Shown here: positions 1 through 23,523 of the stretch, piece after piece
Numbering within the stretch: position 1 is the first letter of the stretch
Layout of the letters: each line of letters opens with the position of its first letter
NCBI GenBank assembly: GCA_027026255.1
Contig: JALVOT010000017.1
Span: 177,670 to 241,669, forward strand
Direction: 5' to 3'
From: a candidate division WOR-3 bacterium
Lineage (GTDB): Bacteria; Hydrothermota; Tepidihabitantia; SM23-42
DNA length: 64,000 bases
Position numbers and translations under genes: made by a program
The notes under the pieces: model-generated
What the model was told of the DNA's origin: nothing
Databases searched by the model: none
The model's input: only the letters and a program-made list of their open reading frames with translations

Positions 1-477
1 AAGATAAGACGAAAAAGGGAAAACTGGGAATATTCCTGGGTTCTAATTATTTCGTTTGTCATCAGTGCCTTTATCGGACTTTTCGGCGGTGTGGCAGGAA
101 CCGGCCCCCTACCAACGAAGATTGCGAATTTTCCCTTTGATATTCAGACATTATATGTCAATATTCTGGTTCCACTCGGTTCTACAATGTTCGCCCTGCT
201 CGCCTTCTTTATGACATCCGCGGCATATCGGGCTTTCCGTGCCCGCTCATTTGAAGCAACCCTGTTACTTATTGCGGCGTTTATTGTTATGCTGGGAATA
301 ATCCCCCTTGGTGGCAGAATTTCCCATCACCTGCCTTCATTTGCCCAGTGGATAATGAATGTCCCCAATGTTGCCGGACAGAGGGGTATTTTATTCGGCA
401 TCGCCTTAGGAATGCTTGCTACTGCGTTAAAAATAATTTTGGGGATTGAACGTGCCTGGCTTGGAGGTGGAGAATGA
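1..477 (+). CDS. Polytopic membrane protein, 5' end truncated by the window edge. Paralogue of the C-terminal half of the protein at 21211..21834.
   Basis: The frame is open from nt 1. The translation aligns with the 207-aa protein at 21211-21834 (RRLRDWQYSIILL / [14 protein letters not shown]; [35 protein letters not shown] / [35 protein letters not shown]). Its stop overlaps the next start (ATGA). Confidence 0.7.
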
Positions 478-1337
478 AGATAATTAATATGCTGACCAAT
501 ATCGACCGCAGAATCATATATCTGATTCTTGCCGCTGCAGTAATCCTGCCCCTGGTTTTTCCATCCGTAGAGAGGGTAAGGGTAATGCCTCCGGTGCAGA
601 AACTCTATAATGCAATCGACCAGATACCCGAAGATAAGGCACTGATTATAGATTTTGATTATGACCCTCAGACCCAGCCTGAATTAGAACCGATGGGCTT
701 TGCTTTACTACGCCATGCATTTAAAAGAAGAATCAAAGTTCTTGTGCTCAGTCTTTATGTGCAGCCTCTGGGTCTGGCAAAAAAGGCACTGACCCAGGTC
801 ATCAAAGAATTCAATGAGAAGGCGACAACATATAATGATAGTATTATCTATGGAAGGGACTATGTATTTTTAGGCTGGCAACCTCCACCCCTTGTTCCGA
901 TACTGGGTATGGGTGAAAGCATCACCCGGGTTTATAAGACTGACTATTACGGTAATAAGACCGATACCCTGCCCCTGATGAAGAAGATTAAAAACTATAA
1001 CGATGTGGGTATGCTTGTCTCCCTGGCGGGCTCGGCGATACCTAAAACCTGGGTCGCCTATGCCCAGAATCGGTTTGGGGTTCAAATCGGCGCCGGTGTA
1101 ACCGCAGTGTCAGCCGCCGACTTTTATCCTTATCTTCAAACCGGCCAGTTCAGTGGACTGATGGTTGGAATGAAAGGCGGAGCAGAATACGAAGAACTGG
1201 TGGAAAGACGATTGGGTTTAAAGGCAAGACGTCGGGCAAGTGAGGCACTACCGTCTTTAACTTATGCCCATCTTATAATGATAATATTCATTACAATCGG
1301 CAATATCGGATATTTCATAAAGAGGAGGTCAAAATGA
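474..1337 (+). CDS. Bitopic membrane protein with N- and C-terminal TM helices and a large central domain. Paralogue of 20376..21209.
   Basis: 287-aa ORF that aligns with the minus-strand protein at 20376-21209 ([17 protein letters not shown] / DRRIIFLLVAVAVIVPL; [12 protein letters not shown] / DYDPGSEAELYP; [12 protein letters not shown] / GAAEYETLVKRR). Translationally coupled to its neighbours. Confidence 0.65.
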
Positions 1338-1975
1338 ATATCTCTTTAGACCCCTGGGTATGGATTAGTGCCTTATTAAGTCTGGCTATTCTATCCTTTC
1401 TGTATCGTGATAACCCCTTTTACAAATTTGCCGAACATCTATTCGTCGGTGTTGCCAATGGTTATGCCGTAACATTCTATTGGCACAACATTCTGGTGCC
1501 TGCATTATTCAATCCTCTCTTCCGTGAGGGCCGATTATATTTTATTATTCCCTTTATTATCGGTATGCTTTATCTCACTCGATTTATCCCCAGAATTTCA
1601 TGGTTGGTCAGGATACCCATCGGTATTGCAATCGGTTACTATACCGGAGCATCGATTCCAGCCACCATTCAGGCGAGTATCATAAAACAAATTCAGGGAA
1701 CTATATTAACCCCGGAAAACTTTGCTTCCTGGCATGCTGGTTCTGCAGGAATTATCTGGTCAATAATTCTCTTTATCGGTGTCCTCTGCACTATATCATA
1801 TTTTTACTTCTCTAAAGAACATAAAGGATTTCTGGGAACAACCTCAAGAATCGGCATCATTTATGTAATGATCGGTTTCGGAGCGGCATTCGGCTACACT
1901 GTGATGGCACGAATCAGCCTCTTAATCGGTCGTCTGCAGTTTTTATTAAGAGACTGGCTGGGTATCATCAGATAA
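1334..1975 (+). CDS. Polytopic (about 6 TM) membrane protein. Paralogue of 19762..20376.
   Basis: 213-aa ORF that aligns over its whole length with the 204-aa protein at 19762-20376 (FLYRDNPFYKFAEHLFVG / FLYKDNPFYKVAEHIFVG; YFYFSKEHKG and FGYTVMARISLLIGR are shared). Confidence 0.65.
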   Translation: MNISLDPWVWISALLSLAILSFLYRDNPFYKFAEHLFVGVANGYAVTFYWHNILVPALFNPLFREGRLYFIIPFIIGMLYLTRFIPRISWLVRIPIGIAIGYYTGASIPATIQASIIKQIQGTILTPENFASWHAGSAGIIWSIILFIGVLCTISYFYFSKEHKGFLGTTSRIGIIYVMIGFGAAFGYTVMARISLLIGRLQFLLRDWLGIIR

Positions 1976-1991
1976 AACCAGAAAAGAGAAA

Positions 1992-2026
1992 AGGGGCAGG
2001 ATAGAAAATCCTGCCCCTTTTTTTTC
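1992..2026. terminator. Bidirectional intrinsic terminator between convergent genes.
   Basis: AGGGGCAGGAT-agaaa-ATCCTGCCCCT followed by T8. The same hairpin has an A-tract on the other strand. Confidence 0.8.
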
Positions 2027-2040
2027 AGTAAATTCCTGTA

Positions 2041-3840
2041 TCAGTGCGTAACCACCACAGTCCTGGATACCTTCTTCTCTGGTGCCTGAAGCAGCACAAA
2101 ATAGGTTCCATTGGCAAGATTGCGGGTAGAAAGATTAACAGAATATGTCCCGGTATTACGATAACCCTGGTCAATCGTCCTTACCTGACGGCCGGTAACA
2201 TCATAGAGATTCAATACTATATTTCCGGAATGTGCAATATTATAAGAAATTGTTGCACAGCCAGAAACCGGATTCGGATATAATGTCAACGAAGTATTAA
2301 CCGGGCGATCAGCCTGACTATGTTCAGCAATACCCATAAATGTATGTTTATCAATAACCCAGCAGCGCACCGGATTTTCCGTACGCTCACTTTCTGGTCC
2401 CCCAACACAAGCACCCGCATCCTTATCCTCGACATAGGTAATAAAGATTGAATCGTTAACAAGTAAAGGACAGACGGTTGCATAATCCTCATCATCACAG
2501 GCACCTGCAGCACCACCCGGGGTCCGGGTATTGGTCAGATTCACATATTTTGCCCAGGTTAAACCATTATCCGTTGAATAAGAAGCATATAACTCACCAT
2601 TAAAATTGGCCGGCTTTCCAACTGTATCTGAATAATCTGTGGTATCATCCTGGCCGTGCCATAAACAGAAAAGGGTATCACTATTCGGGTCAACAATAAG
2701 CTGAGGCTGATCCGCCGCGGTCCTCCAGCCACCAGCCCTATCAAACTCATCAAGCCACCAGCCTTCAGGCTGATTATAATAGGTGCTTGGACTGTTTACC
2801 ACACTAATCGTATTGGAAACCTCATCCCAGTGGAAAATCTTGGCGCGGTCAAACACATGAAGAGTATCATTATCAATATGAGCCTGATAAGCACCCCAGA
2901 CAATATGCAGATGGTCATTGCGGTCAAAGACCCCATTTACATCACAGTATGCCCAGGTTGCAGTATCAGAAACTTGAGAAAAAGGTTTATAATGGGTAAG
3001 ATTCACCGGATTACCCCAAGTCACCCCGCCATCAGTAGAGAGCACATAATAAACATCATTATTAATTTGATCATTATTAGAATCAACTATCTCAATATAT
3101 TGAGTCCAGATATACACCACCTTATTAGAACCGGAGTTCTGTGAGGCACGGACAAATTGAGAAACGGTGCCACAGGAATCAACTGCCATTTTCTCGGTCC
3201 AGGAATTACCTGCGTCTGTCGTCAACCAGAGATGCTGGTCTGCACCTCCATATTTAGCACTTACCATCACGATATTGCCGTTATTTGCCACCGCAATATA
3301 AGGCCAGATCTGGTCTGTTGCAGATGGAGTCTTGGGATCATTGGGCCAGGTTCCCCAGAGATTACCTCCATCAATGTCAATCCAGGAAAAATATCCCTGA
3401 CCGGCATCATAATGGTAGGCGATAACTGTGCGCTGGGTATCGGCGTTGGCATCCCTGGTTATATCAAGCTGGACATAACCGGACCAGGATGGAGAACCCG
3501 GGGTCTCACCAAAATATGTGCCATCCGTATATCGAGCATTCCAGCCACAAAAACGTTTGTTCGCTGCTGAATCCTGTGCCATCCAGTTGATATGCGCCTG
3601 ACCTTTATCATCCACATCAATACGCTGGCCAAAAGAACCGTTTGCCTGATAGTCATACCAGGTAGTTCCTATCTTGTCACCGGGACTGCGTGAACCACCA
3701 AGATACGGTATCGGGTTACCATTAGCAATCCTCTCATTACCAATCAGTTTCTGATACGGTCCCCCACCTTTTATAACCAGACTAAACCCCATTGTAGCAA
3801 CTATTGCTACAACCATCAGTATTTTGCCCATATCCTTCAT
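2041..3840 (-). CDS. Secreted BNR/Asp-box repeat protein (sialidase-like fold) with a T9SS C-terminal sorting domain.
   Basis: 599-aa ORF with an N-terminal signal peptide. BNR motifs are STDGGVTW, YSTDNGLTW and TTDAGNSW. The C-terminus resembles a Por-secretion CTD (GTYFVLLQAPEKKVSRTVVVTH). Confidence 0.65.
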   Translation of the reverse strand: MKDMGKILMVVAIVATMGFSLVIKGGGPYQKLIGNERIANGNPIPYLGGSRSPGDKIGTTWYDYQANGSFGQRIDVDDKGQAHINWMAQDSAANKRFCGWNARYTDGTYFGETPGSPSWSGYVQLDITRDANADTQRTVIAYHYDAGQGYFSWIDIDGGNLWGTWPNDPKTPSATDQIWPYIAVANNGNIVMVSAKYGGADQHLWLTTDAGNSWTEKMAVDSCGTVSQFVRASQNSGSNKVVYIWTQYIEIVDSNNDQINNDVYYVLSTDGGVTWGNPVNLTHYKPFSQVSDTATWAYCDVNGVFDRNDHLHIVWGAYQAHIDNDTLHVFDRAKIFHWDEVSNTISVVNSPSTYYNQPEGWWLDEFDRAGGWRTAADQPQLIVDPNSDTLFCLWHGQDDTTDYSDTVGKPANFNGELYASYSTDNGLTWAKYVNLTNTRTPGGAAGACDDEDYATVCPLLVNDSIFITYVEDKDAGACVGGPESERTENPVRCWVIDKHTFMGIAEHSQADRPVNTSLTLYPNPVSGCATISYNIAHSGNIVLNLYDVTGRQVRTIDQGYRNTGTYSVNLSTRNLANGTYFVLLQAPEKKVSRTVVVTH

Positions 3841-3855
3841 TTTGCCTCCTTTCTT

Positions 3856-6465
3856 TTATTTCAAAAAAACTGCCTTTCTCGCCACGGCCTTGCTGTCTCT
3901 TTTCAGTTGTATAAAATAGACGCCGGCATTTTCGAGTGAAAAACTATATTCATAAGCGCCCGGGCTGAGTACCTTCTGAATAAAATCAATCTGCCTTCCT
4001 GATATATCGTAGATATCCAACCGTATTTTACCGCGAGATTTTAAAGTAAATCCAACCTTAAGAATTCCTTTCTGAGGTGAAGGAATATTAAGAGAGGCGG
4101 AAATCCCTTTTTCTTTATAGGCTTCAATTCCTGTAAGATATTCACGAATTAGATAGACACCGTCAGATTCATCTGCAAGATAAAGCATACGGCCGCTACA
4201 GGCGAGATTGACAGCATTGCCAAAAGACTCCATATATCCAATTTCCCTTGGATTTAAGGAGTCTGAAACATCAATCATCCTGACACCTTCAAAACCATCA
4301 GCCACAAAAAGACCATCACTCAGGAGCACCTTATTGGCAGTGCCCGGCGTATCAAGAGTGCCAAGCTGTTCCGGATTTACAGGATCGGAAATATTAAATA
4401 TCTTTATCCCGCGTCCACCGTCAGCCAGGTATATTAGATTATTTTTTAATACCAGACCCCGGGTAATGCCGTTTGTATTATAAAAACCGATCTCAACCGG
4501 AGCGGTGGGATCTGCGACATTTACCACCCTTAATCCCTTAGTTCCATCTGCCACAAAAGCAATGGTATCTCTTATTACAACATCATAGGCCTGTCCCGGA
4601 CTATCATACCTGCCTTCAAGTGATGGATTAGACGGCCTGGAAATATTAATTATAACAACCCCTGAAATTCGGCAGGCAGCATAAGCATAATTTCCGGAAA
4701 CGCAAATCGCCATTGGCTGGTCAACATTTAATCCCAGTTTTCCCACCTGGGCTGGATTGGTTGGACTGGAAATATCAATTACCCGAAGAGTATCTTCCTG
4801 GTCCAGGACATAAAGGTAAGAACCCGATGCCGCCAGGGCGACACTATTTCCTGGCAGAGCCAGATGATAGACCTCATCAGGCAGACTTGAATCAGAAAAG
4901 TCTGCAACCAATAAACCATCGGTTCCGTTCACAATATATGCATAATTCCCTGACAACACAAGTGCCTTTGCTGAATGAGGCAAACCATAGTGTCCAACCA
5001 GTTTCAGATTCGAACTATGTGCCGGAAAAGTTGATTGAATTTTATTAAAACTTCCGTCTGCAGCGAGCTTCTGATTTGAACTATTTAATCCGGCAATATT
5101 AATTCGGAATACAGAATCTATATCTGGAGCTACCCACAGATATTTACCCGTATTAGAAACATTATCCTTAATAAGCGTCCAGTTAAGAGAATCATAACTC
5201 GAAGATTGCCTGCCAATTGAATACCAGATTTTCAGATGATCAATATCCGAACCAGTTGTTGACCATTTAATCCAGTATTTCAGGTCCTTAAAAACAAATC
5301 CACCCCGGGGAAAATCGAGAAATATATTATCATTCACTGAACCGCCCGGGACAAATGTGACCACATAGTCATTAGAATATGTCCCCTGATAGTAAGTCCA
5401 GAGATTCCAGTACGGCTCGCCGCTCCAGCCCCAGGTAGTATGAACCTGCACAAATGTATCAGGCGGCTCAATCAGATAGCCTATTCCGGTCAAACAATGA
5501 TGGATGAATTGATTTCCATAATAATAATATGAAACCGCCCAGACGCAGGGTCTTCCTCCATCAATCTCATCCTTTAACCAGGAAAAGACCCATTGATTCC
5601 AGGAACTACCCTGGGATGATGTTAAGCTGTTGCAGGAATAGCCATTTACAGAATTAGCGACTGTTATCATACCGGGTTTTATATTGCTGATATAGGTTCC
5701 CCCGGTCATTGAATCGGTATTCATTGCCAGGGCAAGTTCCTTGGCAACATTAACACATTCCTTCCACTGGCTATAAGGTGGGTCATAACGGGTAAAATAG
5801 AAATCAACAAGCCGACCATAGCCGCGCGAATCCCAGTATCCGAAAATCATTGATGCCGATGTCGGACAACAGCCATAAACCCAGTCCTGGAAAGGAACTC
5901 CGGAAATATAAGCCGAATCCTGACGGGTTGTAAATGATGGAGTATTAAAATATCTTTCCCATTTTTCTCTGGTTAAAAGTTCAAGCGCTTTATCAGATTT
6001 AATCCGGGATTTTAAATCCCCTTTATCTATTTTTTTAAGTGTGGCTGAATTAATTAGAATTTCTTTATCCTGACATTTAAATCCGCAATATTCTTCACCC
6101 GGACCAAAATAGTATACCCTTTGAAATTGAGGTTCCATTTTAAATTCTTTCCTTGCCGCATTCAAAATTTTATCATAACCGGTTTTAAATCCTGGTAAAT
6201 CAAATGAAATCTCCCCAATCGGGGATGATGTCCATCTTGCACCCATTACAATATTTATAATATGATTATTAATGTTTTTATAAATCATCGCATAAGCATT
6301 TGGTTTATCATCAATACCGTAATAGGTCACTATCTGGTCCAGTTGATAATTACCAAAGCGTTCATTAATGAATTTTTCAGAAAGCGCCTTAACTTTTCCA
6401 AAAGGGATGAAATCTGAAGCAAAACTTAAACAAAAAATCATCAACAGCATAACCGCCTTTTTCAT
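3856..6465 (-). CDS. Peptidase C10 (streptopain/PrtT-like) domain fused to an LVIVD-repeat beta-propeller and a T9SS C-terminal sorting domain.
   Basis: 869-aa ORF with a signal peptide. The active-site Cys region is GCCPTSASMIFGYWD (compare GCVATAxAQIMKY of C10 peptidases) and the downstream signature is VHTTWGWSGEPYW. Repeated GxYxYxxxxxxGLxVIDISxPxxP units are LVIVD-like. The C-terminal CTD is GVYFIQLKRDSKAVARKAVFLK. Confidence 0.7.
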   Translation of the reverse strand: MKKAVMLLMIFCLSFASDFIPFGKVKALSEKFINERFGNYQLDQIVTYYGIDDKPNAYAMIYKNINNHIINIVMGARWTSSPIGEISFDLPGFKTGYDKILNAARKEFKMEPQFQRVYYFGPGEEYCGFKCQDKEILINSATLKKIDKGDLKSRIKSDKALELLTREKWERYFNTPSFTTRQDSAYISGVPFQDWVYGCCPTSASMIFGYWDSRGYGRLVDFYFTRYDPPYSQWKECVNVAKELALAMNTDSMTGGTYISNIKPGMITVANSVNGYSCNSLTSSQGSSWNQWVFSWLKDEIDGGRPCVWAVSYYYYGNQFIHHCLTGIGYLIEPPDTFVQVHTTWGWSGEPYWNLWTYYQGTYSNDYVVTFVPGGSVNDNIFLDFPRGGFVFKDLKYWIKWSTTGSDIDHLKIWYSIGRQSSSYDSLNWTLIKDNVSNTGKYLWVAPDIDSVFRINIAGLNSSNQKLAADGSFNKIQSTFPAHSSNLKLVGHYGLPHSAKALVLSGNYAYIVNGTDGLLVADFSDSSLPDEVYHLALPGNSVALAASGSYLYVLDQEDTLRVIDISSPTNPAQVGKLGLNVDQPMAICVSGNYAYAACRISGVVIINISRPSNPSLEGRYDSPGQAYDVVIRDTIAFVADGTKGLRVVNVADPTAPVEIGFYNTNGITRGLVLKNNLIYLADGGRGIKIFNISDPVNPEQLGTLDTPGTANKVLLSDGLFVADGFEGVRMIDVSDSLNPREIGYMESFGNAVNLACSGRMLYLADESDGVYLIREYLTGIEAYKEKGISASLNIPSPQKGILKVGFTLKSRGKIRLDIYDISGRQIDFIQKVLSPGAYEYSFSLENAGVYFIQLKRDSKAVARKAVFLK

Positions 6466-6570
6466 AATAATCTCCTTAAATTGTTTCCCGAAAAAAACAA
6501 TTTTTTCTCCATAAACCCCCTGTTCTAATCGGGGTGTGAAGGTATTTTACCTTCACACCCCGGAATTTCC

Positions 6571-7686
6571 CTAAAATTCTATACTCAATCCAAGTCTATG
6601 CGTCGCCTTAAGAATTCCCTTATTCATATATGCATAATCAATACGAAACCCTGTATTACCGGTTTTCACATTAAACCCAACCCCGGCGGTAAGATTATTA
6701 AGCAGCCACTCGGTTTTATCACCCCAATTATAACCGGTTGTCTCATTCGTTGTGGTATCAATTATCGGTTTGCCACCCGTCATCGCCTTCACATAATCAA
6801 TATTCAAATACATCTTGTAACCTGCCCTTAAGAAAAATGTATTGAGATAGGCATATTCAAAACCGAGATTAATTGTTTCGTAATTATCATTAGGATGATT
6901 AAGGTCTAAATCCATTGTCAACCGGGATGACTCATTAGAAATAGGGTCAAATGCCAGACCAAATCGGAATATCAGAGGTAAAGGATACGGTGTGGTCTTG
7001 TAAGTACTCGGTATCGGTTCATAATCAAGTGGGGAATCTGGAAACGGATTTTCCGCAAACTCCAGGTTCCGACCGCTGAAACTTATATCCGAACCGAAGT
7101 TGCTCATTGCCGCAGCAATCTTAAGGCCTTTAAACCCGGTATTATAATGAATTCCAAAATCAGTTGCAATACCGGTTGCGGTCATACTCCAAACAATTTC
7201 CTGGACTCCCTTAATGGTTAATCCTGCTGCGAGTCGATCCGTGAACATTCGACCAAATGATATACCAACGGCAAAATCCGAAGCATTAAAATAAGTTCCT
7301 GTTCCGGTATCCTCACGAATGGTCGTATTGGGATTGTCAACCCCGGTAATCTCCATCTTTCCCATTGTTAATGCCGTCACACTTAATCCCATCGTTCCAA
7401 AATTACCCAGGGGCAAAGCTGCAGTCAGATAGTCATGACGAATATCCGCAATCCATTCATTATGCTGAAGACTTATCTGTCTCTTCTCAATTGTTCCCAA
7501 TCCAGCAGGATTCCAGTAGGTCGCTGAGGCATCATCAGCAATCGCAACAAATGCCTCGCCCATTGCTGCACCCCGACCTACACCAATCTTCAGAAACTGA
7601 GCACCTGAAGTCCCCAGTTTTGCAAAGTCAGCATAGAGGGGCAACATTAAAATCAAGAGTAGGCTGATGTATTTTATCCTTTTCAT
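6571..7686 (-). CDS. PorV/PorQ-family outer-membrane beta-barrel protein (T9SS-associated).
   Basis: 371-aa ORF with a signal peptide. The N-terminal motif is AKLGTSGAQFLKIGVGRGAAMGEAFVAIADDASATYWNPAGL. The C-terminus ends in aromatic residues (EF). Confidence 0.55.
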   Translation of the reverse strand: MKRIKYISLLLILMLPLYADFAKLGTSGAQFLKIGVGRGAAMGEAFVAIADDASATYWNPAGLGTIEKRQISLQHNEWIADIRHDYLTAALPLGNFGTMGLSVTALTMGKMEITGVDNPNTTIREDTGTGTYFNASDFAVGISFGRMFTDRLAAGLTIKGVQEIVWSMTATGIATDFGIHYNTGFKGLKIAAAMSNFGSDISFSGRNLEFAENPFPDSPLDYEPIPSTYKTTPYPLPLIFRFGLAFDPISNESSRLTMDLDLNHPNDNYETINLGFEYAYLNTFFLRAGYKMYLNIDYVKAMTGGKPIIDTTTNETTGYNWGDKTEWLLNNLTAGVGFNVKTGNTGFRIDYAYMNKGILKATHRLGLSIEF

Positions 7687-7695
7687 TCTAACCTC

Positions 7696-10662: not shown

Positions 10663-10669
10663 CTACCTC

Positions 10670-13429: not shown

Positions 13430-13440
13430 TATGAACCCCC

Positions 13441-14478
13441 TTACTCTACCCTGACAGGAATCAACCATACAACCGCACTATATCCCTTATTCGGGGTAAC
13501 ATAGTAATACGAATCCTTTGCAACCGCTTCAATATACAGATTTTCAATTCCCTGTCCAGTAATCACAAAACTTCCTGTTCCATCGACCAATTGCACTCTT
13601 TTCTGACCACCCAATGATACAAAGTAAAAATAATCATTTTGCAGCTCAGCGGGGGATATGCTAACCCTGGCAAACAAAGTTTCATTCGCCGGATAAGTTA
13701 ACAAAGAATCTACAGCGCGAAGTCTATTCATTGCGTGACCGGTGTAGGTAGTATCATAACTCGAATACCATACGGTATCAGAAATACCCAAATTCTCGTT
13801 ATAAAAAACTACATTATAAATAGATGCCACAACACCACCCCGATTAGGGAAATAATAGATTCCATATGAGACCCTTTTCAAAACCCATTCACGCGGTTCA
13901 ATAAGATTATTTACACTATCCCTTTTCGGCTCCAGAAAGATCAATCTTGTTCCTTCGCCAACGATATTCTTGGTCTGGTATGCCGTACCCGGACCGGGGT
14001 TTATTATCGTATCCATTGTCTTCAGCTTCATAGCGAGTGTTTCGCCGGTGCCAGGATCAATGATTACACTATCATAGTGCCCGACATATCTAATGTCCTC
14101 ATGCATCTTGGAAATTACACTAAATGTATCCCACAGATAAACCGTGCAGGTAGTATCCTTGGCATACCAGAAATCAGCGAAACGGCTGGAATCACTGATT
14201 GACAGTGCACAGCTATCAATATGCTGCTTTACGAGCGGAGAATCAACACGAAAATAACTGTCAACACCAGGAAAATCAACCGAGGGCATCGTAAACGGTA
14301 TATAGTTTTCAACAAATTGATCGACTGTATTAAGGAATTCAGGATGGGCATCAAGCTGAGCTTGAATCAGTGAATCATCTTGCGGTGTTCCGTTATAGAA
14401 TCCCTCTGGTGGTTCATTGCCGCAGGTAATAAATAACACACCCGCACCTACCAAGAGGCTCAGAAGATATCTCTTCAT
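13441..14478 (-). CDS. Lipoprotein of unknown function.
   Basis: The start is chosen at MKRYLLSLLVGAGVLFITC (signal peptide plus lipobox Cys). The ORF track's longer N-terminus would overlap the upstream gene. Confidence 0.5.
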   Translation of the reverse strand: MKRYLLSLLVGAGVLFITCGNEPPEGFYNGTPQDDSLIQAQLDAHPEFLNTVDQFVENYIPFTMPSVDFPGVDSYFRVDSPLVKQHIDSCALSISDSSRFADFWYAKDTTCTVYLWDTFSVISKMHEDIRYVGHYDSVIIDPGTGETLAMKLKTMDTIINPGPGTAYQTKNIVGEGTRLIFLEPKRDSVNNLIEPREWVLKRVSYGIYYFPNRGGVVASIYNVVFYNENLGISDTVWYSSYDTTYTGHAMNRLRAVDSLLTYPANETLFARVSISPAELQNDYFYFVSLGGQKRVQLVDGTGSFVITGQGIENLYIEAVAKDSYYYVTPNKGYSAVVWLIPVRVE

Positions 14479-14582
14479 TATTCCTCCTTTCTTCTTTTTA
14501 TTTTTATTTCTCACTACCAACGAATTTTTTATTTATCACCTCCTTGCTGAATTTTTAAATTTTTCTTCTTTACTAAAAGCAA

Positions 14583-15197
14583 TTATGGCGAACGAAGATT
14601 AAATGTCACGGGAAACGCCAATCGGACTGGAACCGGCTTATCCCGCTGTTTTGCAGGACTCCATCGGGTCTTTCTCGCTGCTGCAATAGCGGCCTCGTCC
14701 AGTAATGGGTTGCCGCTCGATTTCAGAATCCTTGCGTCGGTCACGCTTCCATCGATACCGACAATAATCATAAGAATAACTTTCCCCTCAATGCCGGCTT
14801 TCCTTGCCATCTCAGGGTATTTTGGTTTCACCGGTTTGATAAGCTTTGGTTTAACCTCCACCCGGGCATAAGGAACAACCTCAATCTCGGGACCGGTAGG
14901 AACTGTCCGAATAATATCTTCTTTAAACTCTGTTGCGGCAATCGTCTCCACCGCCTCTTCTTCAGCAACCTTTGACTCCGCCTCAACCGCAACCTTGGGT
15001 CGCTCCTTTGGAGGTGGTTCCTCATATTTATCAATCTCGGCGGAGATCTCTTCAATCATCGTCACCACTTCATGTTTCAATTTATATGGGGTAGGTTCAG
15101 AATAAGGCACAAATGCAAACAGCAAAATAAAAATAACAAGACTGGCAAATATTCCGGTGCGCAGATATACCCCATATAAGAGTTTATGATCACGCAT
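14583..15197 (-). CDS. tonB: TonB-like energy transducer with a C-terminal TonB domain.
   Basis: 204-aa ORF with an N-terminal TM helix and a Pro/Glu/Lys-rich linker (EEPPPKERPKVAVEAE). The C-terminal region is KPKYPEMARKAGIEGKVILMIIVGIDGSV. Confidence 0.65.
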   Translation of the reverse strand: MRDHKLLYGVYLRTGIFASLVIFILLFAFVPYSEPTPYKLKHEVVTMIEEISAEIDKYEEPPPKERPKVAVEAESKVAEEEAVETIAATEFKEDIIRTVPTGPEIEVVPYARVEVKPKLIKPVKPKYPEMARKAGIEGKVILMIIVGIDGSVTDARILKSSGNPLLDEAAIAAARKTRWSPAKQRDKPVPVRLAFPVTFNLRSP

Positions 15198-15199
15198 TC

Positions 15200-15616
15200 T
15201 TACCTCCTGAATTCAGTGGCAAAAGTAATCTTAAATGCCTTCGCCTCTTTCAGTTGATCAAGCACCTTATCAACCGTTCCATAATTCACCACTTCATCAA
15301 CATTCAGGATTGTAATAAGTTCTGGATTCTCCAAAACCTTGGGCCTCATCTTATCAGCAATCACCTGAGGTGAGATTAAATTATCATCAATATATATCTT
15401 ACTGTTATTATCAATCCAGATATGGCTGACATTTCTGCGCATTAAAATTCGTTCTGTAGACATCGCCTGCGGCAAACGGATGTTTAGATGGAGTCGGGTC
15501 GCCCTGAAAACCGTCGTCACCATAAAAAAGAGGATAAGCAAAAATGCGATATCTGCTGTCGAAGCCGTAGGGATTTCCGGTGTCTGTGTAAAGCGTCTAA
15601 TAATACTCTTTCTCAT
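15200..15616 (-). CDS. exbD: ExbD/TolR-family protein, second copy.
   Basis: 138-aa ORF with a single N-terminal TM (IAFLLILFFMVTTVF). Its size and topology are typical of ExbD. Confidence 0.65.
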   Translation of the reverse strand: MRKSIIRRFTQTPEIPTASTADIAFLLILFFMVTTVFRATRLHLNIRLPQAMSTERILMRRNVSHIWIDNNSKIYIDDNLISPQVIADKMRPKVLENPELITILNVDEVVNYGTVDKVLDQLKEAKAFKITFATEFRR

Positions 15617-16089
15617 TATTTCTTCTCCCCACTGGCCGGAATAAGACTTATCTTCTTGGCTCGAACCTCCCGGCCATCAGGCATCGTTACCTTACACAAT
15701 TTAATCTGATCCAGAACCGCAATCATATTTTTATATGGAGCCTCTTTACTGGCACGCAGCGAAACAACCAGCAGGGTATCCCGTTCACGCAGACGTTCTT
15801 CAACAATTTGCCGTATCTTATCATAATCATCCGATTTTATAATTTCATCATAGCCTACGGTCTTTACCTTCACCTCACCAGCCGGGTTGATTGCAATCGT
15901 AACAATATTTTCCTTCACCACCTTAACCTTCTGTTCCTTTTTTGTCTTTTCTGGCAAAAGCATCTTCAGACCTTTATCCCGGGTAAACACCGTGGAGGTA
16001 AGAAAGAATATCAAAATCAAAAACGCCACATCCCCCATTGATGCGGTAGGGATAGCGGGCGGATTTTTTTTCTTTTCTTTTAATTTCAT
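15616..16089 (-). CDS. exbD: ExbD/TolR-family protein, first copy.
   Basis: 157-aa ORF with an N-terminal TM (MGDVAFLILIFFLTSTVF). Translationally coupled to its neighbours. Confidence 0.7.
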   Translation of the reverse strand: MKLKEKKKNPPAIPTASMGDVAFLILIFFLTSTVFTRDKGLKMLLPEKTKKEQKVKVVKENIVTIAINPAGEVKVKTVGYDEIIKSDDYDKIRQIVEERLRERDTLLVVSLRASKEAPYKNMIAVLDQIKLCKVTMPDGREVRAKKISLIPASGEKK

Positions 16090-16093
16090 TATT

Positions 16094-16732
16094 TCATTTC
16101 TTCCTCTTGGGATATTGTTCGATCAAATAATCAATCAAACCACTTGCTGCCTCCTCCATATCCCTGGTATAACCATCCACCTTGCCGCTAAAGAGGATAT
16201 GGATAATCGCCAGAGGTGCAGCAATAATCAATCCCCATTTTGTGGTGATAAGTGCGGTTGAAATTCCGCTGGCAACAACCGTAGGTTCTACCTCACCAGC
16301 CCGCGCGATTGCTGCAAATGCGGTAATCATACCCATAACTGTCCCCAGAAATCCTAAAAAAGGCGCCACGGTGGTAAGACCGGCGAGTAATGCCATCCCG
16401 CGATCAAGAAAACCGAGTTCGGTTGCTGCACTGCGGGTAACCATCTCCTCCATCGCATCCTTTCCCTGATGCGCTTTTTCCAGGACTGAACGCAAAATTT
16501 TGGCTACCGGAGCCGCGGTCTGATCACAAAGTGCAATACCGGCATTAATTCCCTGTGAATCTATTATCGATATTAAACGCTCTAAAAATCCCCGGGGGTT
16601 AAGTCGTGCCTTGATAAAAAGGCTGTATAATCTCTCCAGAATCAATGCAACACCAAGTATCGCACACACCAATAAAAACCACATTGCAAAACCACCACCA
16701 CCTTCTGTCCCCAATTGGAATTCCCTTATCAT
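16094..16732 (-). CDS. exbB: MotA/TolQ/ExbB proton-channel family protein.
   Basis: 212-aa ORF with three TM helices. The C-terminal TM region LTTVAPFLGFLGTVMGMITAF is typical of ExbB/TolQ. Confidence 0.75.
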   Translation of the reverse strand: MIREFQLGTEGGGGFAMWFLLVCAILGVALILERLYSLFIKARLNPRGFLERLISIIDSQGINAGIALCDQTAAPVAKILRSVLEKAHQGKDAMEEMVTRSAATELGFLDRGMALLAGLTTVAPFLGFLGTVMGMITAFAAIARAGEVEPTVVASGISTALITTKWGLIIAAPLAIIHILFSGKVDGYTRDMEEAASGLIDYLIEQYPKRKK

Positions 16733-16785
16733 ACCTATCCTCCTTTCGTTTTTTTGCCTTTAATAAAAATTAATAAACAACAGTG

Positions 16786-16813
16786 AATTATATTAAAAAT
16801 TTCATAAATGTCA
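16786..16813 (-). promoter_or_regulatory. Sigma70-type promoter for the exbB-exbD-exbD-tonB unit, internal to the long minus-strand array.
   Basis: On the minus strand: TTGACA - 16 nt - TATAAT. A 5'UTR of about 50 nt follows, with a GAAAGGAGG Shine-Dalgarno. Confidence 0.6.
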
Positions 16814-16865
16814 AGAGTAAAAAACCTCATATTATCACCGATTTTTTGACTTAAGTCTTGTTCGG

Positions 16866-17216
16866 TTATCTTGAACTCGCGGTGTAATAGAGAAGCCCTC
16901 CGATAAGAGAAAAGATACCGGCACCCAAGAGAAAAAGACTCTCAATCCGGGCAAGATTCAGTGAACCGATAATCAAATCAAACAGGTTCGAGGGACCAGC
17001 GGTTCCCAGTAGAGGAAAGTAAAAAAGCATTCGGTAAATATGGAAAATCGCCAGGACGATTAAAAAAACTCCGCCGATAATCGGTAATATCCAGATCCCT
17101 TTGCCCTGAATCAGGATAAGAAGTCTTTTTATTATCAACCCATAAATCAAAAGAGCTGCTACGGTCAATAATATTGCAACGATGAAAAGTATCTCAGCCG
17201 GTATGTCTGCCTTCAT
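16866..17216 (-). CDS. Small polytopic membrane protein.
   Basis: 116-aa ORF consisting almost entirely of 3-4 hydrophobic helices. Confidence 0.5.
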   Translation of the reverse strand: MKADIPAEILFIVAILLTVAALLIYGLIIKRLLILIQGKGIWILPIIGGVFLIVLAIFHIYRMLFYFPLLGTAGPSNLFDLIIGSLNLARIESLFLLGAGIFSLIGGLLYYTASSR

Positions 17217-17243
17217 AAAACCTCCTTTTAAGACACAACAATT

Positions 17244-17615
17244 CTATTTACCTCTTGTAACTGCGTAAAATCTGAGATTGGCAACCAGCGAAAGAACCCC
17301 GGAGATAAAGAAAAACCCATAAGCAAGATAGTTAACCCCGGCCTTCGGCAACATTATCCTTCCACCAATACCGCAATAAAAAAGTTGAATAATCGCAAAG
17401 ATAAGGATACCCGTAGGTGCAATAATCATAAACTGCCAGTCTGTATGCTCACCCAGGACAATCTCATAGCGTCGGGCGATTATCCCCAAGAAGATGAAGG
17501 CAAGCCATAAAAGAACTGCTCCGAGTATAAGAAGAAAGTTGGGGACAACCGCCAGGGAATGATAGGTGTCCGGGTCCATTCCAAATGGCGCCATAATCAA
17601 CATAATCTGTAGCAT
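17244..17615 (-). CDS. Small polytopic membrane protein.
   Basis: 123-aa ORF with 4 predicted TM helices. Confidence 0.5.
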   Translation of the reverse strand: MLQIMLIMAPFGMDPDTYHSLAVVPNFLLILGAVLLWLAFIFLGIIARRYEIVLGEHTDWQFMIIAPTGILIFAIIQLFYCGIGGRIMLPKAGVNYLAYGFFFISGVLSLVANLRFYAVTRGK

Positions 17616-17649
17616 AAAACCTCCTGAAAATTTAAATAAATTTTTTAAT

Positions 17650-18234
17650 TCACTTCACAAGTTCTAATAATTTATTTGTCAAACTGGCTCCCCGGGATGG
17701 TCCGATAACCATACCTGCAGCCTTACCCAGGGCAAAGATAAAACGTCGGATATCATCCTCATATAGTTCATCAGGATTTATCTTCTGGGTCTTCAATTGA
17801 TTTTTATAGATTCTTTCTGTAAAATCCCCCAAGTAATCACTCATAACGGCCTTGATTTTATCCAGAAGTTCCGGACCCATTACCGACCCGGGTTTTTCTT
17901 CAGCTTCAGCTTCCGGCTTTCCTTTCAGTTCCTCAAGCAGGTTATAAAGTTGAGAAACATCCAGCCCGGCTCTGGAATCAAAAAGGGTTCCCACCAGAAA
18001 ATCATCTTCAAACTCTATAATTAAGGACTTCTTCTCACCCAGTATCTCCAGGGTATCAATCTTCACATCACCCACTGCATTGATTGTCTCAAAGAGCACA
18101 GTCGCGGTATGGGAAAATTTTTCAATCAGTGCCTCACCAGAACCGGTAGTGGAAACCTCACCGGAACTGGTTGCCGTAAAAGGACAGGGAAGTCCCCGGG
18201 ATTCAATCTTTTCCAATATATCTCTTTCTATCAT
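17650..18234 (-). CDS. Roadblock/LC7 (MglB-like) domain protein.
   Basis: 194-aa ORF. The N-terminal roughly 110 aa have the roadblock-like alternation, and an acidic C-terminal extension follows. The assignment comes from pattern and context, not from strict motifs. Confidence 0.4.
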   Translation of the reverse strand: MIERDILEKIESRGLPCPFTATSSGEVSTTGSGEALIEKFSHTATVLFETINAVGDVKIDTLEILGEKKSLIIEFEDDFLVGTLFDSRAGLDVSQLYNLLEELKGKPEAEAEEKPGSVMGPELLDKIKAVMSDYLGDFTERIYKNQLKTQKINPDELYEDDIRRFIFALGKAAGMVIGPSRGASLTNKLLELVK

Positions 18235-18914
18235 TTCATCCTTTCAATAACCGCCTGAACCTTAGCTCTTGCCTGGGATGAACCCATCTCTTCAACCGCC
18301 TCCTTTACCAGAAAGTCTATGATTGTGCGCAGTCCTTTAAGAAAATCTTCTTCTTTATCCTCAGGAGGTTTACTCTTAAAGACAAGTTTATTCTCAACAA
18401 TACCAACGAAAGGAAGCAAATCACCGGCGAACACAGTCAACCCCTTATTTAGACAATCAAGCCAATGTTTCAGATTTCCCTCACCGCCGAATTCACTCAC
18501 CAGAAGATTAATCTGACGCAGCTTGGAACTGAGACTTCGGGGAATCTCAGTCTTTGATTTTTCCTCTACCTCTACCTTTTTCTCTATCTCTACCTTTTCC
18601 TCTGCCTTCTTCCCGGCATCAGCCCGGATTCTTTCGATTATTGCCCGGGGATTGGCCTCGGCTTTAATCTCAAGACCAAGATATTTTGATTCATACAAAA
18701 AGATTAACAGCCGATTGCCGCCGTAATTGAATAATATGTATTTAATCTCACCAAGCTCCAGACTATTCTTTATCACCTCACCGGCTGATGAAAAAAAGGC
18801 GGTCAGGTCACCCAGAGGTCGGGATGAAGAACCCTTGACCTCTTCAACCGAACCATCCTCAGCATTGACAACCGCATACCCCAAAACCTCAACAATCTTA
18901 TCCAGTATCTCCAT
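18231..18914 (-). CDS. Roadblock/LC7 (MglB-like) domain protein.
   Basis: 227-aa ORF. The N-terminal region MEILDKIVEVLGYAVVNAEDGSVEEVKGS...GNRLLIFLYESKYLGLEIKAEANP resembles the LC7/roadblock fold. A charged C-terminal tail follows. Confidence 0.45.
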   Translation of the reverse strand: MEILDKIVEVLGYAVVNAEDGSVEEVKGSSSRPLGDLTAFFSSAGEVIKNSLELGEIKYILFNYGGNRLLIFLYESKYLGLEIKAEANPRAIIERIRADAGKKAEEKVEIEKKVEVEEKSKTEIPRSLSSKLRQINLLVSEFGGEGNLKHWLDCLNKGLTVFAGDLLPFVGIVENKLVFKSKPPEDKEEDFLKGLRTIIDFLVKEAVEEMGSSQARAKVQAVIERMK

Positions 18915-18916
18915 CG

Positions 18917-19762
18917 CTATTTTTCATTCTTCAACTTGTTGTTAAACTCTTCATATTTCTTTTTAAAAAGTAATTTGCCGTAGAGTTTTTGCCCTTCTTT
19001 TTTGAGGAACTGATTAAAATCCTTGAAAAAGTGTTCAATAATATCCTGCCCCACCTTGGCTCCAACCTTAATCTCTAAATATTCCTGCTCAATATGAAGG
19101 GCATTAAAGAGTGCTTTATTTTTCTCATCCAGTTCTGCCCACCGCTTTAACCAGTTGAATCCATTCTTCTTGAAGACCTCAAAAAACCTTTCCAGATAAT
19201 TTACCACCTTTGCCATCACCCGTTCCGCCTCTTTGGGGTCATAAATCAAACCCTTCTCCTTTAACCAGACAATGGTTTTGACCGCCTCATATCCTCCAAT
19301 CTTTGAACCGGCAATAACCTCGGCCAAACTCTTTTTACCATCAATAAGGGCGAGAACCTGCCAGTCGGTTCTTCTTAAAGCAACTGCAGATTCTAATTCC
19401 TTTGTTGACTTGGTGAGCACCGCGTCCATTGGGGGCAGATTATCTTTTATCTTCTGAAATTCAATACGCCGTTTTTCAATCCTTTCCCTTAACTTCCCCA
19501 CCCCTACGGAAATTGTCTGTTGCGGAGGTTCCACCCCGACATCAAAAGCCGCCTTTTCCGCCTCAATAAAAGAAAGATTGATTAACGCCTCCATCCCTTC
19601 CCGGGAACCGTCTGTAGCATGAACAACAAGCCCGTCCTTTAAAAATATCTCACCACCAATATTACCGAGCACCCTCAAAACCCCGGTCTTTTTAACCCGG
19701 CTGAGAAATTCCAGGACATCACCAAGTTTGAATTCCTGAAGGTCAATTTCAAAACAGGACAC
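18917..19762 (-). CDS. DUF4388-domain protein.
   Basis: 281-aa ORF. Its N-terminus (FKLGDVLEFLSRVKKTGVLRVLGNIGGEIFLKDGLVVHATDGSREGMEALINL) matches the DUF4388 pattern (G-L-x-x-F-x-L-x-D-L-L-Q-x-L ... G-x-L ... G-x-I-x-F-x-x-G). Confidence 0.6.
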   Translation of the reverse strand: MSCFEIDLQEFKLGDVLEFLSRVKKTGVLRVLGNIGGEIFLKDGLVVHATDGSREGMEALINLSFIEAEKAAFDVGVEPPQQTISVGVGKLRERIEKRRIEFQKIKDNLPPMDAVLTKSTKELESAVALRRTDWQVLALIDGKKSLAEVIAGSKIGGYEAVKTIVWLKEKGLIYDPKEAERVMAKVVNYLERFFEVFKKNGFNWLKRWAELDEKNKALFNALHIEQEYLEIKVGAKVGQDIIEHFFKDFNQFLKKEGQKLYGKLLFKKKYEEFNNKLKNEK

Positions 19763-20376
19763 TATATTATCCCCAACCAGTTATGAAGCAGAAAATAGAC
19801 CCGGCCGATTAAAAGGGAGATTCGCGCCATTACGGTATAACCAAATGAAGCACCAAATGAAACCATCATAAACCAGATTCCCACTTTTGCAGCAAAACCT
19901 AAGGTTCCTTTATGCTCCTTGGAAAAATAGAAATATATTAATGTAAAAACAACCCCGGCAATGATAAGAAGATTGGAAAAGACCTTGAATGGATGAATCC
20001 CGGCCAGGGGCAAAAATGTCGCCTGAAGTTGAGGCAGGATATCGCCTTGAATAATCTGGGTGATAAAAAGGGCCATTGAAATTCCCATCGTAAAGGTAAG
20101 GGGAATTCTTACCAACCAGCTCAGCTTTGGGATAAAAGGGGCAAACATCAAAAGTCCAATGATAATTGGAATAAGATAGACCATATTACCTTTGACAATC
20201 AGGGGTTCAAACAGATTGGGCCAGGCAAAATCAAACCAGAGAATCACTGCCCAATATCCTGCAGAAATACCAACAAAGATATGCTCGGCAACCTTATAAA
20301 ATGGGTTATCCTTATATAAAAATGAATAGATTGCCAGGGTCAAAAGGGAAGCAATCCAGACACCCAGAACCTCCAT
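19762..20376 (-). CDS. Polytopic membrane protein. Paralogue of 1334..1975.
   Basis: 204 aa; see the reciprocal alignment at 1334..1975. Confidence 0.65.
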   Translation of the reverse strand: MEVLGVWIASLLTLAIYSFLYKDNPFYKVAEHIFVGISAGYWAVILWFDFAWPNLFEPLIVKGNMVYLIPIIIGLLMFAPFIPKLSWLVRIPLTFTMGISMALFITQIIQGDILPQLQATFLPLAGIHPFKVFSNLLIIAGVVFTLIYFYFSKEHKGTLGFAAKVGIWFMMVSFGASFGYTVMARISLLIGRVYFLLHNWLGII

Positions 20377-21209
20377 TACCGTTTACTCCTTTGATAAACG
20401 AGAATCACATTTCCCAGAATAATAAATAGAACAAGCAGTGCATGAACAATTGACTGGGAATCCATACCGGCAAGTGCTCGACCCCTTCTTTTAACCAGGG
20501 TTTCATATTCCGCAGCACCCTTTAATCCACCCATAAGCCCCACCAACTGTCCTGATGCAAGATATGGATATTGCTGGGGAGCCATAATCGCTGTGGTTGC
20601 TGCACAGACCGGAATCCCGAATCGGGCGTGGAAATAGATAATCCAGTGCAGGACCCCGGGATCACCGGCTGATAAACTCATCACCAGCGCCATATCCCGG
20701 GCCGACTTCACCTCTTTACCCAGGGGCAAAGAATCGATCGGCACTCCAGCATAATCAGTTTTAACCATATCACCGACATTTTTCCCTAGGCTGAGCAGCA
20801 TCACCGGACCGCCTGGTTTATATCCTACATTAATATAATCAACTCCATACTTTTTATTGTAATGTGCCCCGATATTTTCCAATGCCATATTACCCAGGGG
20901 AGTTCCTGCGGGCCATAATGCAAGCATAAAGATGCGTAGATTTTTTCGAAAGCAGTGTTCAAGAAATGCCTCGGTTGCAGGATAAAGTTCCGCCTCACTT
21001 CCCGGGTCATAATCAATGGAAACAACCACCACCGAACCTTCAGGCAGGGACTCTACTTTATCATATATATTCTTAACCGGCTTTGTAATATCCACGGGCA
21101 GACCGATCGGGATAAGCAGCGGAACAATTACTGCAACGGCAACCAATAAAAAGATAATTCTTCGATCTAAAGCGGACAATCGGGCAAGTATATTATTCAC
21201 CTGCCCCAT
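20376..21209 (-). CDS. Bitopic membrane protein. Paralogue of 474..1337.
   Basis: The start is trimmed to the Met (MGQVNNILARL...) whose ATG overlaps the upstream stop. This is the same coupling as in the + strand copy. Confidence 0.6.
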   Translation of the reverse strand: MGQVNNILARLSALDRRIIFLLVAVAVIVPLLIPIGLPVDITKPVKNIYDKVESLPEGSVVVVSIDYDPGSEAELYPATEAFLEHCFRKNLRIFMLALWPAGTPLGNMALENIGAHYNKKYGVDYINVGYKPGGPVMLLSLGKNVGDMVKTDYAGVPIDSLPLGKEVKSARDMALVMSLSAGDPGVLHWIIYFHARFGIPVCAATTAIMAPQQYPYLASGQLVGLMGGLKGAAEYETLVKRRGRALAGMDSQSIVHALLVLFIILGNVILVYQRSKR

Positions 21210-21210
21210 A

Positions 21211-21834
21211 CTACTCCTTACCTCCGCCCATATAACTTCTCTCAATCCCTAATAAGACCCTCAAGCCCATAGAAATCATACCCAGGTCAATACCGAATAG
21301 AATTCCCCTTTTTGCTGCGGTATTGGGAACAGTCATTATCCATTCAACCAGATTGGGAAATCCATGCCAGATCCAGTAACCGATTGGAACCCGGCCGATC
21401 ATTACAAGCACGGCGGCAATCAAAAGCAGGGTCGCCTCAGGACTTCTGGCTCGAAACGCCCGAAATGCTGCTGAGGCGACAAAGAACGCCAGCAGTGAAA
21501 ACATCGTCGCACCCAAGGGAATCTGAACATTTTTGTAAAAATATAAAAACAATCCACCTTCGGGTCCGCCGATAAAACCGGCTGCCATCATAACCAGGAG
21601 GCAGATTAAAAGAATGATGCTGTACTGCCAATCCCTTAATCTTCTCTGAATCTTTTCAAGATTTATCTTAATGATATTAAATATTCCGATAAAGATAAAG
21701 AATGCCATCACCCCAATATACCAGTTCTGAAAGGTCTGGGATGTATCCTGAATTCCTTTCAAGGGAATAAAGAAACTTACCAGCATAAAGAAACCAAATC
21801 CAAAAACCACGATTATCGGTAAAATACTTTTCAT
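21211..21834 (-). CDS. Polytopic membrane protein. Paralogue of 1..477.
   Basis: 207 aa with 5-6 TM helices. Confidence 0.65.
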   Translation of the reverse strand: MKSILPIIVVFGFGFFMLVSFFIPLKGIQDTSQTFQNWYIGVMAFFIFIGIFNIIKINLEKIQRRLRDWQYSIILLICLLVMMAAGFIGGPEGGLFLYFYKNVQIPLGATMFSLLAFFVASAAFRAFRARSPEATLLLIAAVLVMIGRVPIGYWIWHGFPNLVEWIMTVPNTAAKRGILFGIDLGMISMGLRVLLGIERSYMGGGKE

Positions 21835-22913: not shown

Positions 22914-22959
22914 TATATTATAATATTCAAATTTAAATAAATGTCAAGATGTAGAGGTT

Positions 22960-23364: not shown

Positions 23365-23523
23365 GTAGAGGTTTAAAACATTGCATCCATCCCAGGAAAA
23401 ATTTTTGAGGTGAAGAAGGATGTCTGTTCAGCAGAAATTATTCTAAAATAACTTCCTTGACTTTCCGATAAAATTTGCTAAACTAACTCACCAATTAACA
23501 ATAAAACTTTTAAAGGAGGTCTG

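Follow-up and report, generated by a model that had tools for sequence, protein, structure and literature searches.

The window analysed here, 64,000 nucleotides (nt) of contig JALVOT010000017.1 from a candidate division WOR-3 bacterium, carries a conserved module of four translationally coupled genes, D-A-B-C, in two paralogous versions of ancient origin (type 1 and type 2); its products are all integral membrane proteins. An earlier note, made from the letters of the window alone, had described a module of three genes present twice, encoding a polytopic, a bitopic and again a polytopic protein (A, B and C); the module has, however, four genes, A-B-C being preceded in both copies by a gene for a DUF6754 protein, designated here as D. 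For copy 1, the source contig was reached by an exact-protein look-up (locus L001), and just upstream of window base 1 it encodes D1 of 361 amino acids (aa), followed by the full-length A1 of 219 aa. The fourth homologue, with FN3 and transmembrane (TM) segments, for which the note had proposed to look there, is thus present and is 47% identical to D2 (E 8e-113). The genes of both copies and the candidate transcription signals next to them are as follows:

1..477, + strand: A1, polytopic, copy 1; the 3′ part only of a protein of 219 aa with about six TM helices, the first 61 codons lying upstream of the window
474..1337, + strand: B1, bitopic, copy 1; 287 aa, a TM helix, a Rossmann-like domain and a second TM helix; type 1 subfamily
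1334..1975, + strand: C1, polytopic, copy 1; 213 aa, five to six TM helices
1989..2021, no strand assigned: terminator-like hairpin; a perfect palindrome with a stem of 14 base pairs and A-run/T-run flanks, from a consensus scan only (1 found versus 0.2 expected)
19762..20376, − strand: C2, polytopic, copy 2; 204 aa
20376..21209, − strand: B2, bitopic, copy 2; 277 aa from the ATG at 21209; AlphaFold2 model available; type 2 subfamily
21211..21834, − strand: A2, polytopic, copy 2; 207 aa, six TM helices, N-in/C-in according to the positive-inside rule
21834..22913, − strand: D2, the fourth gene of the module, copy 2; 359 aa, PF20539 (E 5.9e-118), FN3, two TM helices and an N-terminal hydrophobic segment
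22920..22947, − strand: sigma-70-like promoter, near consensus (TTGACA-16-TATTAT, 11 of 12), from a consensus scan only

The gene coordinates of the earlier note hold as open reading frames (ORFs), except that A1 is incomplete in the window. As claimed there, the coupling is tight in both copies; it is, however, not of identical form. The A1/B1 and B1/C1 junctions of copy 1 are ATGA overlaps of 4 nt, whereas in copy 2 the D2/A2 and B2/C2 junctions are TAATG overlaps of 1 nt, and A2 is separated from B2 by a 1-nt spacer (TAGtATG); the stop codon of C2 overlaps, also by 1 nt, the GTG of the PATAN gene that follows. The hairpin sits between the stops of C1 and of the convergent gene for a 599-aa protein with a C-terminal sorting domain (CTD), and is probably a bidirectional terminator ending both transcription units. 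The promoter-like site, ending 7 nt before the ATG of D2, may possibly mark the start of a long minus-strand operon, and with so short a gap either the D2 mRNA would have little or no leader, or translation would in fact begin at a codon further downstream. An Rfam scan of the window returned three tRNAs and nothing else.

Concerning the relatedness of the two copies, pairwise BLASTP comparisons with compositional matrix adjustment bear out the earlier idea of colinear, diverged paralogues. The window-truncated A1 and A2 share 50% identity over 158 aa (E 7e-42) and the full-length A1 and A2 44% over 219 aa (E 3e-48), the values being 36% over the full 287 aa for B1 and B2 (E 2e-65) and 50% over 204 aa for C1 and C2 (E 4e-69). 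Since the matches are composition-adjusted and run end to end, covering the soluble domains of B and D as well as the polar loop motifs, the similarity reflects homology and not TM composition, the circumstance that the note itself had named as refuting. The duplication is old, because at the DNA level just three short stretches of 71–74% identity are left between the copies. Moreover, nearly all the family-invariant residues are retained—58 of 59 and 59 of 59 in the two D proteins, 27 of 27 in both A, 22 of 27 and 27 of 27 in B, and 40 of 40 in both C—so that both copies are probably functional. The opposite explanation, according to which the similarity is one of low-complexity TM composition or one of the copies is a decaying pseudo-operon, found no supporting point and is refuted, with practically nothing left in its favour, by E-values from 1e-42 to 1e-113, by the full-length alignment of the soluble domains of B and D, by the intactness of two copies with their invariant residues, and by the conservation of each subtype in many phyla.

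The module is by no means confined to this bacterium, being widespread among uncultured ones. B gives 3130 matches in a database clustered at 90%, and its profile retrieves 4953 clusters at 50% identity, 3660 of them at E ≤ 1e-10; there are more than 7600 matches for C and at least 8000 for D, and the genome scan yielded at least 577 confirmed loci. The 79 loci kept for comparison, i.e. those closest to B2, span about a dozen phyla; their labels are WOR-3, Eisenbacteria, Stahlbacteria, Latescibacterota, Coatesbacteria, Ignavibacteria, TA06, Zixibacteria, Fermentibacteria, Binatia, UBP2, a Bacillota-labelled bin and Planctomycetota, including Scalindua and Anammoxibacter. As revealed by BLAST of the window proteins onto all ORFs, the order D-A-B-C is kept in 79 of 79 loci as far as the contig ends permit, the module being single in 60 of them and repeated in tandem in the others (double in 17, triple in two).

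In the neighbour-joining tree of B, the window B1 belongs to a clade of 22 sequences (B1 itself and 21 others), to which each locus with two or three modules contributes one copy and no more, B2 being grouped with the other copies. The B1 and B2 copies represent two old subtypes, usually found in tandem. Two loci, L068 and L072 (from TA06 and WOR-3), present the complete order: GcvP, s137, a GlmL-like protein and N381 (the last three are described below), D-A-B-C of type 1, D-A-B-C of type 2 and PATAN, the series then continuing to the Ton genes. Because of this tandem order of type 1 and type 2, the layout of the window is likely to be a rearranged ancestral pair, the type 1 copy now lying in reverse orientation at the opposite end of the array.

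With regard to known families, D2 is a clear member of DUF6754 (PF20539; 393.1 bits versus a cut-off of 27), and so is D1 according to the annotation of the source contig; the entry covers, however, just one of the four subunits, its function is undescribed, and no paper on DUF6754 or PF20539 was found in the literature searched. For A, B and C, for which the earlier note could name no family either, there is no match in Pfam or NCBIfam (all the genes in 1..24672 were scanned), and their profiles match no PDB sequence at E ≤ 10; the D profile matched the FN3 domain among PDB sequences and nothing else. The per-member Pfam scans of A, B and C returned only sub-threshold TM noise (TMD0_ABC, DUF3704, holin-like). 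The Rnf-Nqr, NQR2_RnfD_RnfE and FMN_bind models have no matches among the window proteins and the family members; the MotA_ExbB and ExbD models do not match D, A, B or C, the genuine ExbB and ExbD being separate genes at 15200..16732; and for D2, A2, B1, B2, C1 and C2 there is no NCBIfam or Pfam match to core components of type IX secretion (T9SS; GldK/L/M/N, SprA, PorV etc.), Por_Secre_tail and weak PorV signals being confined to the neighbouring genes. In profile-profile comparison D, A, B and C are mutually unrelated, and the hhalign comparison of the profiles of D, A, B, C, N381, the GlmL-like protein, p123 and p116 uncovered no hidden internal homology.

Judged by sequence, and for B also by fold, the module thus seems to stand outside every described family, D alone bearing a label, that of a domain of unknown function (DUF), and its mechanism may prove conventional. 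Four co-inherited membrane proteins without a characterized relative, B alone accounting for thousands of clusters in at least a dozen phyla, amount to a considerable gap in what is known of the bacterial cell envelope. With the module, a Pfam DUF gains a context and three families lacking a Pfam or NCBIfam model are defined. Two handles are offered by its neighbours—the adjoining genes for a TonB-dependent receptor (TBDR), the Ton machinery, T9SS cargo and PorV-like barrels, and, in other phyla, the upstream actin-fold ATPase—and both of them could help explain movement across the envelope in poorly known, mostly protein-degrading candidate phyla.

As far as the individual subunits are concerned, the topology proposed in the earlier note is confirmed, with six TM helices in A (N-in and C-in), five or six in C, and a central domain in the bitopic B. 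D begins with an N-terminal hydrophobic segment (possibly a signal peptide), followed by an FN3 domain (modelled with confidence), a TM helix that is strongly basic on its C-terminal side, the DUF6754 domain of about 200 aa—very conserved and with many invariant polar residues—and a C-terminal TM helix. The charge bias, read by the positive-inside rule, would place the FN3 domain of D in the periplasm and its DUF6754 domain in the cytoplasm. The AlphaFold2 model of B2, with a predicted local distance difference test score (pLDDT) of 93.8 and a predicted template modelling score of 0.90, shows one TM helix at the N-terminus and a long one at the C-terminus, with a Rossmann-like α/β domain of six strands in between. 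By the same rule the central domain of B is expected to be periplasmic, with which the positively charged tail beyond the second TM helix is consistent. The invariant motifs of B are DYDP after strand 1, SAGDPG after strand 4 and GGxKGAAEYE after strand 6; on the secondary-structure map, as distinct from coordinates, they fall at the C-terminal strand ends and may therefore form the canonical ligand site of such folds. The matches to the fold are generic only, and neither the two hinged α/β lobes nor the specific fold similarity of type I periplasmic binding proteins was found in B.

Several long relatives of B (P0377, P0391, P0404, P0445 and P0506) have one loop, following residue 115 or so, that is greatly enlarged by insertions of CARDB-like repeats (about 560 aa), HEAT-like repeats or coiled coils, and in one relative the whole domain is internally duplicated. 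That insertions of such size are tolerated suggests that this loop faces open periplasmic space, and the CARDB-like ones, being of extracytoplasmic type, fit a periplasmic domain. The long relatives were also considered as Rosetta-stone fusions, which was rejected, as they represent loop insertions or internal duplication with no informative fused domain. All four subunits are 45–50% identical across phyla. The fixed gene order, the overlapping stops and starts and the matched conservation argue for a single complex of the cytoplasmic membrane, which would have about 15–16 TM helices and domains on both faces.

It should be pointed out here that copy 2 heads a long minus-strand array and that, as the earlier note had it, copies 1 and 2 bracket the array of Ton and T9SS-cargo genes. 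In the order of transcription from C2, and all on the − strand, it comprises:

18917..19762, − strand: PATAN/DUF4388 protein, the operon partner directly after C2
18231..18914 and 17650..18234, − strand: two paralogous soluble proteins following the PATAN gene
17244..17615 and 16866..17216, − strand: two small proteins with four TM helices, operon partners
16094..16732, − strand: ExbB, operon partner
15616..16089 and 15200..15616, − strand: ExbD and a second ExbD, operon partners
14583..15197, − strand: TonB, operon partner
13441..14520, − strand: putative lipoprotein of 359 aa, operon partner
10670..13468, − strand: TBDR-like protein with CarboxypepD_reg and Plug domains
7696..10662, − strand: 988-aa protein with a T9SS CTD, distal operon partner
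6571..7686, − strand: PorV/FadL-like barrel, distal operon partner
3856..6465, − strand: 869-aa protein with an LVIVD propeller, a CTD and a weak C39-like peptidase match
2041..3840, − strand: 599-aa CTD protein

The two soluble proteins after PATAN are weak paralogues (hhalign E 0.003), for which the earlier label "roadblock" was not supported by Pfam or PDB profile searches, and so are the two small proteins with four TM helices at 16866..17615 (hhalign E 6e-4). Four T9SS CTD proteins are encoded by the array, three of them above the Pfam cut-off and one below it.

The arrangement recurs elsewhere. The block from PATAN to the TBDR has the identical order in 21 related loci; in the Eisenbacteria-type loci, the TBDR, a large CTD protein and two PorV-like barrels come directly after the module, while the order after the module in Fermentibacteria is TBDR, ExbB, ExbD, ExbD and TonB. 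In WOR-3, Stahlbacteria, TA06, Eisenbacteria and Fermentibacteria, taken together, the module is succeeded by genes for a TBDR, a large CTD protein and PorV-like barrels, to which ExbBD-TonB may or may not be added.

Based on this neighbourhood, it is tentatively proposed that D-A-B-C is the inner-membrane transport unit of a TonB-linked trans-envelope pathway, a reading that is favoured here but held with less than even confidence. It rests on the presence of an outer-membrane receptor and a Ton motor in the window array and the Eisenbacteria-type operons, on the lack of any recognized inner-membrane transporter in the window array (2041..22913), and on the make-up of the module, with about 12 polytopic helices and a periplasmic domain bearing a putative ligand site. 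The outer-membrane step would be taken by the adjacent TBDR, the PorV/FadL-like barrels and ExbB-ExbD-TonB; A and C would form the membrane pathway; B would bind the transported molecule through its conserved strand-end residues (DYDP, SAGDPG, GGxKGAAEYE); and the role of D would be to connect the complex with partners in the cytoplasm. The two types might then serve different substrates or enter mixed complexes. As for the substrate, uptake of peptides or amino acids is a weak guess, prompted by the neighbouring peptidase and glycine-cleavage genes. The operon logic is the same as in the TonB uptake loci (BtuB/BtuCDF, Sus-like), in that a membrane module is encoded together with a Ton motor and an outer-membrane receptor that has CarboxypepD_reg and Plug domains. 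The differences are that the component in the inner membrane falls in no known family of transporters, that neither a SusD-like nor a periplasmic binding protein was recognized, and that the PATAN, PorV-like and CTD partners are unusual.

Several observations weigh against this proposal. The link to the Ton genes is not universal: in counts that are biased by the choice of the 79 loci closest to B2, a TBDR was found in 29 and the PATAN cluster in 21 of the 64 loci with at least 4 kb downstream, and 30 of the 64 have neither, so that the constant company of DUF4388 or T9SS genes asked about in the earlier note is frequent, yet not obligatory. In genomes of anammox bacteria and Binatia, the module is accompanied by a GlmL-like ATPase and a 380-aa protein instead. 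Within the module no subunit for energy coupling was identified, and no homology of the module to transporter families was found. It could still be an ordinary transporter family that has diverged too far to be recognized. The cross-phylum identity of 45–50% is above that usual for nutrient permeases and would better fit core machinery or an enzyme complex. Finally, B is the only one of the four subunits with a usable structural model, the prediction for the DUF6754 core having a pLDDT of about 30.

The same array may be viewed in the direction of export or surface assembly. D-A-B-C would then serve as a platform in the inner membrane for secretion or for a cell-surface system, either as an accessory to type IX-style secretion or gliding in the Fibrobacteres–Chlorobi–Bacteroidetes (FCB)-group lineages or as a variant of it, and would work with the PATAN regulator, the Ton-like motor, the PorV-like barrels and two CTD-bearing proteins, the 988-aa one and the one with the LVIVD propeller and peptidase match. 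The four T9SS CTD proteins and the PorV/FadL-like barrel of the window array speak for it, as do the large CTD protein followed by two PorV-like barrels in the Eisenbacteria-type loci and the periplasmic FN3 domain of D, typical of envelope scaffolds. PATAN domains have, moreover, been presented as regulators of motility machines (10.1101/2021.06.11.447907), which adds to the same side. The export reading is considered rather unlikely, however, given that D, A, B and C match no T9SS core model of NCBIfam or Pfam, that the loci of anammox Planctomycetota and Binatia show no CTD or PorV-like neighbours, and that TBDRs are classically importers.

A different set of partners was detected by all-against-all clustering of the locus ORFs. 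It is a trio located directly upstream of D, consisting of s137 (about 120–140 aa), a GlmL/MutL-like ASKHA (actin-fold) ATPase of about 600 aa, and N381 of about 380 aa (e.g. L068:1416-4686, L072:1394-4679 and L079:4655-8012). Members of the trio precede D-A-B-C in 22–26 loci, belonging to TA06, WOR-3, Eisenbacteria, Fermentibacteria, Zixibacteria, Binatia and anammox bacteria. The GlmL-like protein matches PF13941 (E 7e-127), but remains under the NCBIfam GlmL cut-offs, whereas N381, with weak RnfC_N/biotin-lipoyl-like and KOW-like signals, falls in no family; across phyla, the former is 61–69% and the latter 43–58% identical. The window and its 10-kb upstream region contain none of the three. 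In the literature searched, nothing relevant was found on PF13941 or on T9SS in WOR-3. Two other neighbour families, s160a and s179, were discarded as spurious alternative-frame ORFs in high-GC genomes. A gene for the glycine-cleavage P-protein often precedes the trio, and in the Scalindua locus (L079:506-4651) an S55 (SpoIVB-like) peptidase and a β-propeller protein come first, ahead of s137, the GlmL-like protein, N381 and D-A-B-C.

This trio figures in the explanation of the module as an enzyme or energy-converting complex, in which the α/β domains of B (periplasmic) and D (cytoplasmic) would be catalytic or cofactor-binding and which, together with the GlmL-like ATPase and N381, would modify or translocate an envelope lipid or glycan precursor, or an ion. 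N381, with its barrel-sandwich-like, Rossmann-like and KOW-like domains, would give the whole a make-up loosely like that of Nqr/Rnf. The position of the trio, its very high conservation, the weak RnfC_N/biotin-lipoyl-like match of N381 and the many invariant acidic and polar residues in D and B all point that way, and the Ton-independent occurrences along with the unusually high conservation of the subunits would fit as well. The resemblance to Na+-NQR/Rnf (NqrD/E, NqrC, NqrA/RnfC) is a loose analogy of make-up—two 6-TM proteins of about 200 aa, a bitopic one with its domain in the periplasm and, in the genomes where it occurs, the soluble N381 upstream. It is contradicted, however, by the lack of matches to Rnf-Nqr, RnfD/NqrB (NQR2_RnfD_RnfE) and FMN_bind, by the lack of conserved cysteines or of Cys/His cofactor motifs in A and C, by the Rossmann-like fold of B, which is not that of FMN_bind, and by a different gene order. 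Since, in addition, the GlmL-like protein and N381 are missing from the window and its 10-kb upstream region, the fold matches of B are generic and the profile comparisons among the families show no relation, the enzymatic alternative appears doubtful, about as much as export does.

Equally improbable, if the partners on both sides are combined, is the broader possibility that D-A-B-C is the membrane core of an undescribed envelope-spanning machine, representing a new class of transport or secretion and no variant of a known one. Such a machine would be common to many uncultured phyla, namely the candidate phyla of the FCB group, Binatia and anammox Planctomycetota. The complete version would have the GlmL-like actin-fold ATPase and its 380-aa partner to drive or service it, and it would be linked to outer-membrane components of the TBDR and PorV/FadL-like type.

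The suggestion made in the earlier note, that A and C are ABC-2-type permeases and B a GldG-like auxiliary with the ATPase encoded elsewhere, failed every test run and is largely refuted at the sequence level, so that it has to be regarded as very unlikely. The module does resemble GldF/GldG with GldA and other ABC-2 systems in having two permease-sized proteins of about six TM helices and a bitopic protein with a large periplasmic domain; the layout of B—N-terminal TM helix, large extracytoplasmic domain, C-terminal TM helix—is, however, a likeness to GldG in topology alone and does not establish membership. GldG is about twice the size of B (277 aa with a single α/β domain). No match to ABC2_membrane was obtained for A and C of the window at E ≤ 0.1, nor for 47 A and 44 C family members at E ≤ 0.5, and none to ABC_transp_aux (PF09822) for B1 and B2 or, at E ≤ 1, for 47 B family members. 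Genes for ABC ATPases do lie near the module in about nine of the 79 loci; they are, however, of mixed types, the one in L030 adjoining its own ABC-2 permease about 4 kb away and those in L080 being OppD/F-like, and were therefore treated as coincidental, while neither window copy nor the array at 2041..22913 has an ABC_tran gene.

Returning to the window, some features related to T9SS deserve mention. The 988-aa CTD protein has weak matches to the CTD regions of PorZ and PorU, and the make-up of the three genes at 3856..10662 (− strand) presumably recalls, as a resemblance only, the PorU/PorZ/PorV/PorQ attachment complex of P. gingivalis. Outside the array, a 689-aa protein at 36405..38474 (+ strand) combines CarboxypepD_reg repeats with an OmpA domain and a sub-threshold PEGA match, a PorE-like architecture. 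At 60484..63375 (− strand) there is a gingipain-like C25 peptidase of 963 aa with a T9SS CTD, so that this WOR-3 genome does contain cargo of the T9SS type. Lastly, four tandem copies of a unit of about 27 nt (consensus about TTCCATTTTTCTCAGCGCGGGCGGCG) are located at 23136..23254, in the gap that separates the D2 operon from the divergent acyl-CoA dehydrogenase genes; they fall within a doubtful ORF of 94 aa, the predicted product of which has AARAEK-type repeats, and could represent either a regulatory repeat or a small repeat protein.

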